Shown here: piece by piece, positions 5,891 through 53,050 of the stretch
Layout of the letters: every line of letters starts with the position of its first letter
Numbering within the stretch: the first letter of the stretch is position 1
Sequence record: NC_019500.1
From: Escherichia phage Bp7
Strand: one strand, 5' to 3'
Length of the DNA: 64,000 nucleotides
The notes under the pieces: model-generated
The model's database searches: none
Seen by the model: the letters and a program-made list of their open reading frames with translations, nothing else
What the model was told of the DNA's origin: nothing
Program-made: the position numbers and the translations under genes

Positions 5891-5920
5891 GTTTACATAC
5901 GCCATGGATGGTGTTACTAT
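5891..5920 (+). promoter_or_regulatory. T4-type early promoter (-35 GTTTAC, -10 TACTAT) with conserved leader ...ctatcaactaatgaggag
   Basis: GTTTAC 5891-5896, TACTAT 5915-5920. Confidence 0.55.
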
Positions 5921-47520: not shown

Positions 47521-47523
47521 TAA

Positions 47524-47540
47524 AGGCCTTCGGGCCTTTT
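47524..47540 (+). terminator. rho-independent terminator (AGGCC-UUCG-GGCCU then TTTT)
   Basis: UUCG-loop hairpin plus T-run. Confidence 0.6.
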
Positions 47541-47574
47541 CTGGCATAAATAAGGTTATTAAAGAGGAATTATT

Positions 47575-49659
47575 ATGACCGAACAATTAAATGAAGTGTT
47601 TGAGTCCGAAGGCACACTGCCTACAGTAAACTTGAACCCAAAACTTAAAGTACCCCAGATTTGGAAGATTGGTGACGCAGAATCCCAATTAGTGGCGCGT
47701 ATGGTATCCTACGCTTCTGAAGGTGATGCTATTAAACAGGTTAAGATGGGTGATAAATATGCCCACGTTATCCTTATGAGCCTTTCAGCTAAAGGTTCGC
47801 CTGCCGAACTTAAAGGTGGCCTAGGCCCTACTCCCGTAGATGCGATTAATACTATTTTTGATGTGGTTTATGACCAAGTTAAAAAGCTTCGTATGGATGC
47901 CGTGATGTTCCGTTTCCCTACTAAGAAAATGAAAGGTCAAGGCCCTATCGTTCAACGGATTATCCAACGTTTGGTAGCACAGAAAACAGGTGGACGTTTT
48001 AAAGTAGTTCCGGCTATGTACCAATTTACCGGTAAACATACTTATATCCTAGTAGTTCGTAAACAGGCTGATATCGAAGATATCAAAGGTATGCCAGGAA
48101 TTAATGCCGAATTATACACTAAGGTAGATTCTGATGTCGGTGAAGTTTATATTTCTAAAAAAGAAGGCGTGCAGGTTACTAAAGAAACTGCTATTGCCGG
48201 CAGTATTGCTAAAGTTGAAGAACGTCGCACTGATAAAATGGTTATAACCAAGACTAAGATTTCTCGTCGTGCCATTGCAGCAAGTCAATCGTTAGAATCT
48301 TATCGTAATGAAAGTGAACTGTTTAAGAAATATGAAGCAAATGCCGTAGATTTTAATAAACCTGCAACAGCTCCATTAATCCCTGAGGCCCAGGAAATGG
48401 TTACTAATAACAATTCTCCCGCGGCTAAAAATAAGGTTGCTAATATAGTAGCTGAAGGTACTGCTGAAGAATTGCATTATGATTATAAAATGTTTCCTCT
48501 TCACGGTATAGGTGAAATCCAAGAGAAAATTAAAGATAAAATTCTTGCGGCCATCAAAAACGAACCTTTGACATCTGTTAAAGCTCTAGAAAAATATGCC
48601 TCTGCTATTAATACCGTTTTCGAAGAATACAAAGGTGAATGGCTGGCCCGGCATAACAAAACTCGTAAAGGCCAACCTGACGACCTCTGGAATGAATTGA
48701 CCGATGCGAAGTGGAAAGCCGCCAAGACCAAGTTCATTAAAAAACGTGTATATAGTTTTGCCGGTGTAGGTGGCGGTATTATGGTCGATATTACTATTGC
48801 TCGTGAGGGCTCTAAATATACCCCATCACAAAAGCGCGGCATCAGAGAATATTGTGGCTCAGGATATACAGACATAAATAATCTTCTTTTAGGACGCTAT
48901 AACCCTCAGAACTATGAGGTTATGGGCGAAAAAGATATCGAATCTGCAGTTAATAATTTGGATTCTGCTTTTGAAAATGGCGACCGTATACCAGAAGGCA
49001 TCACAGTTTATCGTGCACAGAGTATGACTGCTCCTATATACGAAGCACTAGTTAAAAATAAAGTGTTCTATTTCAGAAATTTTGTATCCACTTCATTGAC
49101 TCCTATCATTTTTGGACGTTTTGGTGTTACACACGCCGGTATCGGTCTTTTAGAACCGGAAGTTCGCGATGAATTGACAGTCGATAAAAATGAAGAAGGA
49201 ATAACTATTAATCCTAATGAAATAAGAGCATATAAAGAAAATCCTGATTATGTTAAAGTTCAAATAGGATGGGCTATTGATGGGGCTCATAAAGTTAATG
49301 TCGTATATCCAGGAAATCTCGGAATAGAAACTGAAGCCGAAGTTATTCTACCGCGTGGATTAATGGTCAAAGTTAATAAAATAACAGATGCTTCTAATAA
49401 TGATGGAACAACATCTAGTAATACAAAACTCATCCAAGCTGAAGTTATGACAACAGATGAGCTTCAAGAATCTGTGGTATATGATGGTGACGTACTAATG
49501 GAAACCGGCGAGTTGGTCGTATATAAAGATGACTTCGATACTTCCGAAAGCCCTGTATCTTTTGATTCATTTGTTAAATCTACACGGTTTGATGTATTGC
49601 CTCTTTTGGCTTCATGCATAGACCTCTATGACATCCCAGAAAAATTCATCCAAGGGTAA
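47575..49659 (+). CDS. alt: Alt-like ADP-ribosyltransferase, paralog 1
   Basis: 694 aa (T4 Alt 682 aa); C-terminal R-S-E ART motifs (KRGIREY, FVSTSL, ETEAEVILPRG); N-terminal region shared with paralog 2. Confidence 0.8.
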   Translation: MTEQLNEVFESEGTLPTVNLNPKLKVPQIWKIGDAESQLVARMVSYASEGDAIKQVKMGDKYAHVILMSLSAKGSPAELKGGLGPTPVDAINTIFDVVYDQVKKLRMDAVMFRFPTKKMKGQGPIVQRIIQRLVAQKTGGRFKVVPAMYQFTGKHTYILVVRKQADIEDIKGMPGINAELYTKVDSDVGEVYISKKEGVQVTKETAIAGSIAKVEERRTDKMVITKTKISRRAIAASQSLESYRNESELFKKYEANAVDFNKPATAPLIPEAQEMVTNNNSPAAKNKVANIVAEGTAEELHYDYKMFPLHGIGEIQEKIKDKILAAIKNEPLTSVKALEKYASAINTVFEEYKGEWLARHNKTRKGQPDDLWNELTDAKWKAAKTKFIKKRVYSFAGVGGGIMVDITIAREGSKYTPSQKRGIREYCGSGYTDINNLLLGRYNPQNYEVMGEKDIESAVNNLDSAFENGDRIPEGITVYRAQSMTAPIYEALVKNKVFYFRNFVSTSLTPIIFGRFGVTHAGIGLLEPEVRDELTVDKNEEGITINPNEIRAYKENPDYVKVQIGWAIDGAHKVNVVYPGNLGIETEAEVILPRGLMVKVNKITDASNNDGTTSSNTKLIQAEVMTTDELQESVVYDGDVLMETGELVVYKDDFDTSESPVSFDSFVKSTRFDVLPLLASCIDLYDIPEKFIQG

Positions 49660-51714
49660 ATGATGGAAAATTTAAACGAAGTTTTTGATAGCGATTCCGC
49701 TAAAAACTATCCAGTAATAAATCTTAAACCAGGTTCCGGTATCCCACAGATTTTCTCTATTAAAGCACCGGGTAATGATAACCTGGTTGCTCGTATGGTA
49801 TCTTATGCGTCTCAAGGAGACGCTATTAAAATGGTTAAGCCGGGCGACAAATATGTCCACGTTATTCTAATGAGTTTGTCAAGCAAGGGTGCTCCGGCTG
49901 AACTCAAAGGTGGTCTTGGTTCTGACCCACTCGGTACGCTGAATACCATTTTTGATACTGTATACGAACAAGTAAACAAACTTAAAATGGATGCGGTTTT
50001 ATTCCGTTTCCCTACCAAGAAAATGAAAGGTAAGGGCCCTACTGTTCAGCGTGTATTAGCTCGTTTGGCTATGGCTCGTACTGGTGGTAAGTTTAAAGTT
50101 GTTGATGCCATGTACCAATTCACTGGAAAACATACCTATGTTCTTTTAGTACGTCGTGGCACTAATATTGAAGATATCAAGGGTATGCCTGAAATTGATG
50201 CCGAACTTTATACTAAGGTTGAGTCCAAAGTTGGCGAAGTTTATGTTTCTAAGGAAACCGGCCAGTCCGTAAGTAAGGCCGAAGCTGTCTCGGCAAGTAT
50301 AGCTAAGGTTGAAGAGAAACGTACTGATAAGGCCGTCATTACCAAGACTAAGATTTCTCGTCGTGCTATTGCTATGTCGCAATCCTTAGAATCGTCACGA
50401 TTTGAAACTCCTATGTTTAAGAAATTTGATTCTAATGCTGCTGAATTGAATAAACCGGCTACGGCTCCTTTAATGTCAGAAGCAAATGAAATAAAGGTTA
50501 TTTCTAATTCTTTCTTGGCTTTAGAAAATACCATTAGTGCTAATACTGGTGGTATGTCGTTTAAAGACAACCTTCTTATTCCAGAAGATAAAATGGAAGA
50601 AATTAATACCGACATAAAAATGAGAGCTTTTGAGAAATTACATGGATTAAATGTGACTTCAGTAAAAGCCCTAGAAAATTATGCTTCAGTGGTTGATGAC
50701 GTCATCGAAGAATATAAAGGTCCTTGGCTTCAAAAGCTAATGGCTCAACATTCACACCTAGGTTATCACGAAGCAGTCGAGTTGGCTGAAAATTCTTGGA
50801 ATGCTATAAAGACCAAAATTATTCAACGTGAGCTGCGTGTTTACGCTCTTACCGCCGGTTGGCAATTGCATTCTATTATAGAAAATAAAGACGCGTCTCG
50901 TTATACTCCTGCCCAGAAACGTGGTATTCGTGAATATGTTGGCTCCGGTTACGAAGATATGAATAATGTTCTTTTAGGTCTCCATGACCCGAATGTAAGA
51001 AGCAGTATTCTGACTAATGAAGACATAGAAAAAGCTATCAATAACTTAGATTCTGCTTTTGAAAATGGCGAACGTCTACCACCAGGTATTACTCTTTATC
51101 GTTCCCAACGAATGATTCCTGATATTTACTTGGCTATGATTAGCAATAAAGTATTCTATTTCAGAAACTTTGTTTCAACTGCGATATATCCGAATATTTT
51201 TGGTACATGGATGACTGATTCTGGTGTTGGTCTTTTGCCTGACGAAAAACGTCGTGATGTTGCATTAGACAAATCGGATGAAGGTTTAGTATATTCGAAT
51301 AAAGATACTTTAGTAGGTATTGGTTGGGCCTTTACCGGTACAGATAAGGTAAATGTCGTTTTACCTGGTGGAGACTTGGCTCCTTCTAACGAAATGGAAG
51401 TAATTCTTCCTAGGGGTTTGATGGTCAAAATCAATAAAATTACAGATGCTTCATACAATAACGGAACTACTCGTTCTAACAATAAGTTCGTTCAAGCCGA
51501 AGTAATGACTGCAGACGAACTTAATGAAGCCGTGGTGTACGATGGTGATGCTCTGATGGAAACAGGCGAACTAGTTGTCTATAAAGAGGGTAATGAGCTT
51601 TCTTTTGATTCTTTTGTTTCTAATGAGAAGAAAAAGAAATCAGACAGAGGTCTTGGCTTGTTAGCTTCTTGTATAGATATCGACGCTCTCCAGTATAAAT
51701 TTGTACAAGGGTAG
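49660..51714 (+). CDS. Alt-like ADP-ribosyltransferase, paralog 2
   Basis: 684 aa; N-terminal region closely similar to paralog 1 (ARMVSYAS.GDAIK.VK.GDKY.HVILMSLS.KG.PAELKGGLG); ART motifs KRGIREY, FVSTAI, NEMEVILPRG; starts 1 nt after paralog 1 stop. Confidence 0.8.
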   Translation: MMENLNEVFDSDSAKNYPVINLKPGSGIPQIFSIKAPGNDNLVARMVSYASQGDAIKMVKPGDKYVHVILMSLSSKGAPAELKGGLGSDPLGTLNTIFDTVYEQVNKLKMDAVLFRFPTKKMKGKGPTVQRVLARLAMARTGGKFKVVDAMYQFTGKHTYVLLVRRGTNIEDIKGMPEIDAELYTKVESKVGEVYVSKETGQSVSKAEAVSASIAKVEEKRTDKAVITKTKISRRAIAMSQSLESSRFETPMFKKFDSNAAELNKPATAPLMSEANEIKVISNSFLALENTISANTGGMSFKDNLLIPEDKMEEINTDIKMRAFEKLHGLNVTSVKALENYASVVDDVIEEYKGPWLQKLMAQHSHLGYHEAVELAENSWNAIKTKIIQRELRVYALTAGWQLHSIIENKDASRYTPAQKRGIREYVGSGYEDMNNVLLGLHDPNVRSSILTNEDIEKAINNLDSAFENGERLPPGITLYRSQRMIPDIYLAMISNKVFYFRNFVSTAIYPNIFGTWMTDSGVGLLPDEKRRDVALDKSDEGLVYSNKDTLVGIGWAFTGTDKVNVVLPGGDLAPSNEMEVILPRGLMVKINKITDASYNNGTTRSNNKFVQAEVMTADELNEAVVYDGDALMETGELVVYKEGNELSFDSFVSNEKKKKSDRGLGLLASCIDIDALQYKFVQG

Positions 51715-51743
51715 TTTACAAACGCCAAGGATGGTGGTACTAT
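51714..51743 (+). promoter_or_regulatory. T4-type early promoter (-35 GTTTAC, -10 TACTAT)
   Basis: GTTTAC 51714-51719, TACTAT 51738-51743; leader with SD gaggag. Confidence 0.55.
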
Positions 51744-51771
51744 TACCTTACACAAACATGAGGAGAACATT

Positions 51772-52062
51772 ATGAAATCTGCATTCCGCTTTAACGGTCA
51801 AGAACTGGTAGTTGAAAACGTTATCCCTGCTTCCGAAGAGTTTGACAGTGCAGTTGGTAATGAATTGCGTCGAGTTTTCGGTGAAGATAAGCAATTTGAT
51901 ATCCGTCCTGTTGAGAACTTTTCTCATCCGGAACAAACCGAAAACATTTTTAATGGTGTAGTGACTGGTCAGCTTGAATCTGAAGCTCCTATTTCAGTTA
52001 CGGTGTTTGTTAAAAAGCAACCACTAATGACTGCAGCAGGTTTCATTTCGTTCCGTAAATAA
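51772..52062 (+). CDS. hypothetical protein (96 aa)
   Basis: ORF between own early promoter and strong terminator. Confidence 0.5.
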   Translation: MKSAFRFNGQELVVENVIPASEEFDSAVGNELRRVFGEDKQFDIRPVENFSHPEQTENIFNGVVTGQLESEAPISVTVFVKKQPLMTAAGFISFRK

Positions 52063-52070
52063 ACCCCTAA

Positions 52071-52095
52071 AGGAGAGCGTACGCTCTCCTTTTTT
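52071..52095 (+). terminator. rho-independent terminator (AGGAGAGCGU/ACGCUCUCCU then T5) between convergent genes
   Basis: 10-bp perfect palindromic stem followed by TTTTT. Confidence 0.65.
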
Positions 52096-52108
52096 GTTAT
52101 AGCAACCT

Positions 52109-53050
52109 CTATATTCCATTATTAATAGCACGCCCGCCGAATGTATTAACTAATCCTGTTAATCCACTAGAAGCTCCTGAAAGTCTACTTAATTTGGCCA
52201 CTGAAGAACTCAGGGAATTGCTCTCACTTATACCCGCCACGCCTTTAAGGACTTTATCTTCCAGCCATTCGTAAGCAGCCTGTTTACCGACTGCGCCTGT
52301 CTGTACACTTCTATAAGCAAATGTAACATCAAACGAAGCAATTTGGTTATCGCCGTCGTAAGATAATTCCGGGGAAGATACGCTCACAGGAACGCAACCA
52401 TTAAGCATTACTACCGTATGTGGTAATCCATTACGGGAATGAAGGTTGACTTGAATGTCAGCTTCAACATCCTCCGGTAATGCTCTTAATTGTGTAATAG
52501 GGTCTTGAACACTATTGACCCAATCATTAAAAGCACGGTAGTTAGCAGCTTCAGAATCCATACGGAAGCTTAATACTAATGGAGAATATTCTCTTCCGGT
52601 AATTTTGATGTTAGGTGAGTTGTGGTTCAAATCCATTTCATAGTTCAAAGTATTATCCGGGATTTTAACGGCGTGGACTAAAAGACCTGCCGTAGGATAG
52701 GCCATATTGAAAAAATCCATCAGATATGTACCTACTTCAAACTCCCCTAGTAAGCTCTGCACAACCCTGGATGACATAGCTCCAATCAAATATTTACTTA
52801 TGCCTGACTTACGAATCAACTTCTGAGTGCCCGCTGTCACTAATGTCGTAACACCTTGGGTCAACTCTCCTTGTGTAATACCAAACAAATCGCTATTCAA
52901 TGGGATATTGTTAAATAAAGCTCCACCGAACTGGTCGAGGAGCGTCTGAGATTTAGAAGAAGGAACTGTGGCAAATACCACACTAAACAGGTTATTCCTT
53001 TGTAGGTCAATATTAATTGCCTGATTCTGAAATTCTTGTAAAGTATACAT
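52109..53050 (-). CDS. 54: baseplate tail-tube initiator gp54
   Basis: 313 aa (T4 gp54 320 aa), follows gp48 on the same strand. Confidence 0.8.
   Translation of the reverse strand: MYTLQEFQNQAINIDLQRNNLFSVVFATVPSSKSQTLLDQFGGALFNNIPLNSDLFGITQGELTQGVTTLVTAGTQKLIRKSGISKYLIGAMSSRVVQSLLGEFEVGTYLMDFFNMAYPTAGLLVHAVKIPDNTLNYEMDLNHNSPNIKITGREYSPLVLSFRMDSEAANYRAFNDWVNSVQDPITQLRALPEDVEADIQVNLHSRNGLPHTVVMLNGCVPVSVSSPELSYDGDNQIASFDVTFAYRSVQTGAVGKQAAYEWLEDKVLKGVAGISESNSLSSSVAKLSRLSGASSGLTGLVNTFGGRAINNGI

Follow-up and report, generated by a model that had tools for sequence, protein, structure and literature searches.

The DNA between the alt genes of Escherichia phage Bp7 and its convergent late baseplate genes holds one small ORF, and the locus raises the question of what this gene is, how it is expressed, and what its product may do in infection. 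The stretch analyzed, hereafter the window, comprises 64,000 nucleotides of sequence record NC_019500.1. An earlier note had described the locus as a promoter–leader–ORF–terminator unit between the alt genes and the late baseplate block, and its parts were all found, namely, the promoter, the ribosome site GAGGAG, an ORF of 96 codons, and a hairpin. The anatomy of the cassette is demonstrated by sequence, conservation, and published T4 data. For T4 and its relatives, records already exist of the gene, of where it lies, and of its early expression, and there is nothing new in the cassette as stated.

The ORF (51772..52062, plus strand; ATG at 51772, TAA at 52060–52062) encodes a protein of 96 aa, 10.8 kDa, and pI 4.9. 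It is the ortholog of phage T4 alt.-3 (DUF5498) and a genuine coding gene. Its product matched Pfam DUF5498 (PF17602) over positions 1–96 of 96 with 117.8 bits (cut-off 27) and phrog_1739 over positions 1–97 of 97 with an E-value of 1.1e-42. Alignment of 48 sequences revealed eight invariant columns, i.e., E11, F24, F50, G66, E71, F91, F94, and R95; besides phenylalanine (four columns) and glycine (one), these are the charged residues E11, E71, and R95. All eight are carried by the window protein. The C-terminus F-x-x-F-R-K is also conserved in the family. Profile match, locus position, and conserved residues all place the protein in the T4 Alt.-3 family (PF17602/phrog_1739). Only T4-like phages carry the family, and it is small: a set of 1.84 billion proteins contains 22 of its representatives at 50% identity. 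Orthologs were detected by tblastn in 845 phage records, in each case over 80% or more of the query, and the gene is named alt.-3 in the records of T4, SP18, IME08, and PEi20. A search of the profile against the six-frame translation revealed no paralog elsewhere in the window; the gene is single-copy. Purifying selection on the ORF is strong (dN/dS 0.01–0.3), the individual values being 0.013 against phage C6 (pS 0.28, pN 0.004), whose protein is 99% identical to that of the window, 0.05 against SP18, and 0.31 against T4.

Comparison with T4 Alt.-3 (P39493/Y12A_BPT4) showed 58% identity over the full length, both proteins being 96 aa long. The motif of the early promoter, the ribosome site, the downstream hairpin, and the position between alt and gene 54 are likewise common to both phages. 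However, the place of the T4 remnants alt.-1 and alt.-2 is taken in the window by a second full-length alt, and the hairpin of the window is much the stronger one (10 bp and −15.5 kcal/mol; T4, 5 bp and −7.8 kcal/mol). Orthologs from Dhakavirus and Gaprivervirus (C6, vB_EcoM_FB, IME540, IME08, and SP18), annotated as hypothetical protein or alt.-3, showed 88–99% identity at the protein level and 93–98% at the DNA level over the whole cassette. For many of them, similarity at the DNA level begins at the alt stop/promoter (window position 51711), and the upstream 3′ end of alt has diverged. The SP18 protein is annotated as 107 aa with a start inside the promoter and is probably over-extended.

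A T4-type early (host sigma-70) promoter was located at 51714..51743 on the plus strand. It consists of the −35 element GTTTACA (G-TTTACA, 51714–51720), a 17-nt spacer, and the extended −10 element TGg TACTAT, with TG at 51735–36 and TACTAT at 51738–51743. In its −35, spacer length, TGn-extended TAnnnT, and strand, the site agrees with the T4-type early consensus, i.e., GTTTAC(A) as −35, a 17-nt spacer, and a TGn-extended TAnnnT as −10, on the early-transcribed strand. A generic sigma-70 scan of the region showed no enrichment (18 sites vs. 19.8 expected). The T4-style pattern GTTTAC-N15-TGNTANNNT occurred in the window six times exactly and once with one mismatch vs. 2.0 expected, always on the plus strand, and none of 100 shuffles reached seven matches. 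The −35, TG, and TAnnnT are invariant ahead of the ortholog in nine genera, as is the TGAGGA of the ribosome site. The predicted 5′ leader of ∼22 nt (51750..51771, plus strand), the start of which was placed by promoter geometry, carries GAGGAG at 51760–51765 and showed no notable structure (z +0.44). A nearly identical leader follows an early promoter at 5891. The sequence TATAAAT at 51694 was considered as a dedicated late promoter and rejected, as it lies within conserved C-terminal coding sequence of alt; the motif is kept in close relatives only.

On the 3′ side, an intrinsic terminator was identified at 52069..52098 (plus strand), within the 46 nt that separate the stop codon of alt.-3 from that of gene 54. 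Its 10-bp stem AAAGGAGAGC/GCTCTCCTTT, in which 52069–52078 pairs with 52083–52092 through 5 GC pairs among the 10, encloses the 4-nt loop GTAC and is followed by a T-run that reaches 52095 and then by GTT. The stem–loop had a predicted free energy of −15.5 to −16.3 kcal/mol, with z-scores of −4.4 to −5.0; among 200 shuffled sequences, none folded equally well. The hairpin, the direct U-run, and the stability above chance mark the element as an intrinsic terminator. The hairpin is kept at this position in nine of nine genera with differing stem sequences. The opposite strand also folds (−18 kcal/mol) and has a poor tail, UUUAGGGG; no minus-strand terminator was called by the scan at the alt.-3/54 junction. 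Gene 54 (52109..53050, minus strand), the convergent late gene for the baseplate tail-tube initiator, has its stop codon at 52109–52111, 17 nt past the terminator stem. Its position matches that of gp54 in T4, SP18, and C6, and its product gave a weak match to Pfam Phage_T4_gp19 (27 bits, under the cut-off of 28.2). A search of Rfam in E-value mode returned only sub-threshold, terminator-like noise.

Upstream lies the second of two tandem full-length alt paralogs (49660..51714, plus strand), which encodes an ADP-ribosyltransferase of 684 aa (Pfam ADPrib_exo_Tox, E 5e-26) and whose stop codon TAG (51712–51714) overlaps the −35 of the alt.-3 promoter. The scan revealed no terminator-like site between this stop codon and the promoter; hence, the cassette is insulated on the 3′ side only. 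The earlier description of an insulated unit is accurate at the terminator and fails at the 5′ side, which is open to alt transcription. Genes annotated as Alt were found by tblastn in 1221 phage records. The order alt → alt.-3 → ← gene 54 is present in T4, SP18, C6, PEi20, ABTNLPp2, PG7, Kpn6N, and FBB1, and across nine Tevenvirinae genera the junction always contains exactly one gene, alt.-3, the neighboring variation being in alt copy number. In Serratia phage Muldoon, Acinetobacter phage AbTZA1, and Aeromonas phage asfd_1h, which represent three lineages outside Tevenvirinae, alt is present and alt.-3 is absent from the junction, which is empty or rearranged; Muldoon keeps the hairpin there without the ORF. 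The presence of the same single gene in the nine genera and the empty or rearranged junction in the three outside lineages contradict the suggestion of a slot where accessory genes accumulate. Universal conservation together with a known function had been named as the finding that would tell against the earlier reading. That finding holds by half: conservation was found to extend across the enterobacterial T4-like phages, but alt.-3 still stands without an assigned function in PMC11618068 and in the supplement of PMC11879866. Literature searches under the DUF, UniProt, and locus-tag names returned nothing on alt.-3 beyond the works cited here.

Early expression, as claimed in the earlier note, is confirmed for the T4 ortholog. 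T4 Alt.-3 (P39493) belongs to the early class both as RNA and as protein, and the protein was seen as soon as 1 min after infection (PMC9697503, Tables S2–S4). Its LFQ intensity rises from zero before infection to ∼1e8 at 1 min and 1–2e9 from 5 min on, and the protein stays abundant throughout infection, beyond the early phase (PMC9697503). T4 alt itself is not an early gene; it falls in the middle class as RNA and in the late class as protein (PMC9697503). T4 with alt.-3 deleted is viable (PMC11618068). The CRISPRi-ART score of the gene is 'Not Fit' (PMC11879866 supplement), which we take to mean that its knock-down carries no measurable cost in fitness. C-terminally extended T4 Alt.-3 (117 or 110 aa) protects the antitoxin CmdA from ClpP-dependent decay and overcomes the CmdTAC defense; a C-terminal extension was found in five of five evolved T4 replicates (PMC11618068). 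Wild-type T4 Alt.-3 neither triggered nor inhibited CmdTAC (PMC11618068).

Tertiary structure prediction of Alt.-3 using AlphaFold gave a single ββ-α-β-α-ββ domain (pLDDT 96.1, pTM 0.84). Judging from the alignment, the invariant columns are read as probably belonging mainly to the structural core, with a variable surface. Foldseek revealed no fold match to the model in the PDB (best E 0.16, TM ≤0.35); hot-dog thioesterases and tombusvirus p19 appeared at chance level only and were rejected. Sequence searches of the PDB with the single protein and with the 48-sequence profile likewise gave chance-level matches (E at least 0.69). Against BFVD, Foldseek matched uncharacterized proteins only; the matches with E ≤1e-3 were all from enterobacterial phages, mostly T4-like by name, and weaker, unnamed matches came from Erwinia and Cellulophaga phages. 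Pfam showed no domain besides DUF5498, NCBIfam and PADLOC gave no matches, and no enzymatic or nucleic-acid-binding signature was seen in the Pfam, PDB-sequence, and Foldseek searches.

Several small immediate-early proteins of T4, such as Dmd, Arn, PinA, and TifA, bind and disable host factors or defenses. Alt.-3 shares with them an early sigma-70 promoter, small size, dispensability in the laboratory, and restriction to T4-like phages. Of the roles considered, the most likely one, which we propose tentatively, is that of an abundant immediate-early product that binds a host protein without enzymatic action and serves take-over or counter-defense. On the anatomy described above, host RNA polymerase with sigma-70 would fire the T4-type early promoter once the DNA enters, and the short unstructured leader and strong ribosome site would allow fast, high translation of the 96-aa acidic single-domain protein. 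The intrinsic terminator would stop the transcript before an antisense run into late gene 54. Alt.-3 would then be stoichiometric on its putative host partner during the first minutes of infection, as a dispensable accessory factor. Unlike the class of Dmd, Arn, PinA, and TifA, Alt.-3 shows no sequence or fold similarity to a characterized protein (Foldseek against PDB and BFVD), and in its wild-type T4 form it does not inhibit CmdTAC, the sole defense tried (PMC11618068). Further points speak against the binder role. The sole phenotype, that of extended T4 Alt.-3 against CmdTAC, is a gain of function; being small, acidic, early, and dispensable amounts to a profile and not to a test; and one gene at one locus in many genera resembles a core-like accessory rather than fast-turnover anti-defense cargo.

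Several observations on the locus could be accounted for in other ways. The location of alt.-3 directly 3′ of alt, or of the last alt paralog, in nine of nine Tevenvirinae genera could point to a partner of Alt, i.e., an early inhibitor, re-targeter, or modulator of injected Alt, comparable to an immunity protein or a specificity factor. Made early, Alt.-3 would be present while injected Alt is active; the packaging and injection of Alt are given in a note of the T4 record. Such a partnership is quite unlikely, as obligate co-occurrence fails in Muldoon, AbTZA1, and asfd_1h, which have alt without alt.-3 at the junction, and a single alt.-3 is found regardless of whether there are one, two, or three alt copies. 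The two genes also have separate promoters and different T4 time classes (PMC9697503), and Pfam, Foldseek, and PADLOC revealed no likeness to known ART immunity proteins.

A phage-internal early process, such as the tuning of phage transcription, replication, or mRNA fate, would suit the fixed locus and the purifying selection across genera, which are like those of conserved phage housekeeping accessories, as well as the stability and abundance of the T4 protein all through infection (PMC9697503). It is nevertheless unlikely, since T4 alt.-3 is dispensable (PMC11618068, PMC11879866), the protein is acidic (pI 4.9) without a nucleic-acid-binding or enzymatic signature, and its only phenotype involves a host defense system and a host protease (PMC11618068). 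The hairpin, being present in every genus and also in Muldoon without the ORF, could alternatively belong to an RNA-level unit in which promoter and terminator buffer transcription where the cassette meets gene 54 head-on, the ORF being incidental. The T4 gene 54 transcript is oddly 'early' (PMC9697503), which could reflect read-through across the weak hairpin of −7.8 kcal/mol. That the unit matters mainly at the RNA level is highly improbable in view of the strong purifying selection on the ORF (dN/dS 0.013–0.3), the abundance of the protein in T4 (PMC9697503), and the confident predicted domain into which its product folds; moreover, a terminator alone would be enough for buffering, as in Muldoon.

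Alt.-3 retains value through its standing among the first and more abundant proteins of T4-like phages and through its conservation across enterobacterial Tevenvirinae. It has a high-confidence predicted fold without a solved analog, and a slight alteration at the C-terminus makes it inhibit an abortive-infection system. Its native partner would fill a gap in the T4 early program and might reveal a new manipulation of host protein turnover. It is conceivable, though rather improbable, that wild-type Alt.-3 already engages the axis of host proteolysis and antitoxin turnover, e.g., a Clp component, an adaptor, or a SecB-like chaperone client; this would explain why a short extension is enough to block ClpP-dependent CmdA decay in every evolved T4 replicate. 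If so, Alt.-3 would be a phage modulator of host protein turnover with a new fold, relevant to toxin–antitoxin immunity generally. The Alt.-3 of the window has the wild-type length, unlike the CmdTAC-inhibiting T4 variants of 110 and 117 aa. As the post-stop sequences differ between T4 and the window, extensions of the T4 escape type would read differently here. Loss of the stop codon in the window would yield 117 aa, as in one T4 escape variant; this was set aside as a coincidence, read-through lengths ranging from 4 to 50 codons across genera. In T4 alt.-3, in-frame read-through would add 50 codons, and neither 117 nor 110 aa fits simple loss of the stop codon.

The plus-strand ORF at 51772-52062 (96 codons, ATG to TAA) is orthologous to alt.-3 of phage T4. 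The proteins of the window and T4 share 58% identity across 96/96 residues, and the gene order alt → alt.-3 → ← 54 is common to both. Pfam DUF5498 covers the ORF end to end (117.8 bits, cut-off 27), phrog_1739 also matches it, and tblastn with the ORF retrieved 845 phage records, every match being full length. Comparison with alt.-3 of phage C6 gave a pS of 0.28 and a pN of 0.004, i.e., synonymous changes far exceeding replacements, and the dN/dS of the window gene was 0.013 against C6, 0.05 against SP18, and 0.31 against T4; the ORF is clearly a genuine gene. The cassette DNA is 97.8% identical to that of vB_EcoM_FB, the protein shares 99% identity with its phage C6 counterpart, and the window derives from a Dhakavirus-like relative of T4. 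The gene is already catalogued, as T4 alt.-3/DUF5498 in its usual location, and several records give it this name. The family is tiny, with 22 profile matches among 1.84 billion representative proteins, three of which, long and repetitive, look spurious; plausible members are all ~90–115 aa, and a profile search found no paralogue elsewhere in the 64-kb window. Some records and gene calls carry a 107-aa form (SP18 record L002, 4968-5291; proteins P0004, P0005, and P0010), the start of which lies 33 nt upstream, within the promoter −10 region. We argue from the conserved M-K-S start and the ribosome site that these forms are over-extended annotations.

The earlier note had described a self-contained early unit, and that observation was accurate, the ORF, promoter, and hairpin each being supported beyond chance. 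On the plus strand, the early promoter consists of the −35 element G-TTTACA (51714-51720), a 17-nt spacer, TG (51735-51736), and TACTAT (51738-51743), followed by a predicted leader of ~22 nt with the ribosome site GAGGAG (51760-51765). Beyond the ORF, the hairpin AAAGGAGAGC-GTAC-GCTCTCCTTT (52069-52092, plus strand) leads into a T-tract. Two full-length alt genes, both matching Pfam ADPrib_exo_Tox, lie upstream in tandem on the same strand (47575-49659 and 49660-51714); the second is the immediate neighbor, and its TAG stop overlaps the −35 region of the alt.-3 promoter. Downstream, gene 54 (52109-53050) is on the minus strand, as are genes 48 and 29, and the stop codons of alt.-3 and gene 54 are 46 nt apart with the hairpin in between. 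The description of the unit as insulated holds at its 3′ side, where the hairpin terminator lies, but not at its 5′ side: a terminator scan found none between the alt stop and the alt.-3 promoter, and this side is open, alt transcription not being stopped ahead of the promoter.

A generic sigma-70 scan around the cassette was uninformative (18 sites, 19.8 expected). The T4-style early promoter pattern GTTTAC-N15-TGNTANNNT matches the 64-kb window exactly at six sites, every one on the plus strand (1087, 5891, 10341, 28090, 39678, and 51714), and at seven in total when one mismatch is allowed, against 2.0 expected; 0 of 100 shuffles reached seven. Four of the five other exact sites are arranged like 51714, with an ORF behind a short leader and a GAGG-type ribosome site; the exception, 10341, lacks these. 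Sites 5891 and 51714 are near-identical base for base from the spacer through the leader to the ribosome site (ATGAGGAGAAC), a pattern resembling reuse of a promoter-leader module. Across nine genera, the −35 element, TG, TAnnnT, TGAGGA, and ATG are invariant 5′ of the alt.-3 orthologues, the coding sequences of which have diverged to 25–58% protein identity. The ribosome site includes GGAG, the motif that the T4 endoribonuclease RegB cleaves in early mRNAs; four of the nine aligned orthologous leaders have GGAG (window, C6, PG7, and FBB1), whereas that of T4 does not. For many Dhakavirus relatives, megablast alignments with the cassette start at window position 51711, at the alt stop/promoter, and the preceding alt has a 3′ end too diverged to align. 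This suggests that the promoter marks a boundary of recombination or divergence.

The hairpin has a free energy of −15.5 to −16.3 kcal/mol (z −4.4 to −5.0), and 0 of 200 shuffles were equally stable. It is found at the same position in 9/9 genera with differing stem sequences, indicating that structure, not sequence, is retained. The minus strand forms the same hairpin but with a poor tail, and the hairpin is mainly the terminator of the alt.-3 unit. This cross-genus support for promoter and terminator adds to the earlier note, and the identity and anatomy of the cassette as the T4 alt.-3 unit, taken together, are regarded as virtually certain.

Comparison of the alt-54 junction, as the earlier note had proposed, revealed that in nine genera a single alt.-3 separates gene 54 from the last alt copy, the junctions including those of Dhakavirus (C6 and the window), Tequatrovirus, Gaprivervirus, Kanagawavirus, Gelderlandvirus, Karamvirus, Jiaodavirus, and Roskildevirus. 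The variable feature of the neighborhood is alt copy number: T4 carries one alt with the remnants alt.-1 and alt.-2, SP18 and the window two copies each, and phage C6 three. In three alt-bearing phages outside Tevenvirinae, alt.-3 is absent from the junction. In Serratia phage Muldoon, a terminator and then gene 54 come straight after alt; in Aeromonas phage asfd_1h, the gap from alt to gene 54 is ~70 nt; and in Acinetobacter phage AbTZA1, alt is rearranged and lies co-oriented after gene 54. Since the gene is constant and single in nine genera and missing from these three phages, the suggestion of a slot accumulating accessory genes did not hold. Judged by gene content, alt.-3 is a fixed, lineage-specific gene and its site no cargo slot, and alt has no need of it, a further addition to the earlier picture. 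Just 5′ of the first alt, at 47522-47552, a hairpin (GGCCTTCGGGCC) and Ts are followed by CATAAATA, which matches the T4 late-promoter motif TATAAATA at 7/8 positions. This late-promoter-like site fits with T4 alt being a middle transcript and a late protein (PMC9697503 Table S2).

Alt.-3 of the window has a mass of 10.8 kDa, a pI of 4.9, and a net charge of ~−4. AlphaFold2 modeling with a 48-sequence alignment yielded a pLDDT of 96.1 and a pTM of 0.84, with the predicted elements β1(2-7), β2(10-15), α1(22-36), β3(41-46), α2(53-64), β4(70-80), and β5(83-95). Foldseek against solved structures returned nothing with E <0.1 or TM >0.35; a confidently predicted fold with no analogue among solved structures is also added. 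BFVD matches at E ≤1e-3 were uncharacterized phage proteins only, all from enterobacterial phages and most T4-like by name, and weaker ones were unnamed proteins from a few other phages. Eight columns are invariant (four phenylalanines, one glycine, and the charged residues E11, E71, and R95), and the C-terminal six residues, F-x-x-F-R-K-COOH, are almost fixed. In Pfam, PDB profile, PADLOC, and NCBIfam searches, Alt.-3 matched no profile linked to enzymatic activity, nucleic-acid binding, defence, or anti-defence.

T4 alt.-3 is an early transcript and an early protein (PMC9697503 Table S2), and the LFQ of its product, P39493, is zero pre-infection, ~1e8 at 1 min, and 1–2e9 at 5–30 min, exceeding that of adjacent table rows (PMC9697503). 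It is strongly supported that the cassette is a monocistronic immediate-early unit transcribed by unmodified host RNA polymerase, that its product is translated quickly and in abundance, and that its transcription ends ahead of collision with gene 54. CRISPRi-ART lists alt.-3 as "function unknown" with the score "Not Fit" (PMC11879866), which we read as knock-down without fitness cost. Without alt.-3, T4 remains both viable and restricted, and wild-type Alt.-3 neither activates nor inhibits the host defence system CmdTAC (PMC11618068). C-terminally extended Alt.-3, of 117 or 110 aa, was found in 5/5 evolved T4 replicates escaping CmdTAC and protects the antitoxin CmdA from ClpP-dependent degradation (PMC11618068). 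The authors of that study called alt.-3 uncharacterized, and the literature searched contained no mention of the gene under any of its names beyond these three papers.

Under the favored reading, Alt.-3 would bind a host protein without acting as an enzyme, and such binding would serve host take-over or counter-defence. This is proposed because of the timing and abundance of the protein, its dispensability on laboratory hosts, its confinement to one phage lineage, its lack of catalytic features, and its ability, once given a short tail, to inhibit an immune trigger that depends on a host protease. The whole reading, early unit and host-protein binder together, is tentative and falls slightly short of an even chance; that wild-type Alt.-3 already contacts the Clp/antitoxin-turnover machinery is doubtful. 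A role as partner of Alt is quite unlikely, as lineages with alt only exist, a single alt.-3 stands against one to three alt copies, and the two genes are separate in timing. A phage-internal early role is given a small chance, and a purely RNA-level buffer is hardly credible, being contradicted by codon-level selection and by the abundance of the protein.

In the window, loss of the TAA would add 20 codons (TPKGERTLSFFVIATSIFHY; 52063-52125), reading across the terminator hairpin, and a +1 shift would add 12. The likeness of these lengths to those of the T4 CmdTAC-escape forms was considered and set aside as incidental, extension lengths being unconserved across genera. The T4 alt.-3 hairpin (T4 record L001, 5289-5317) is weak, with 5 bp, −7.8 kcal/mol, and no U-run. 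In PMC9697503, the text of which does not give the strand-specificity of the RNA-seq, Table S2 pairs an "early" transcript with a "late" protein for T4 gene 54; antisense read-through from T4 alt.-3 might explain this.
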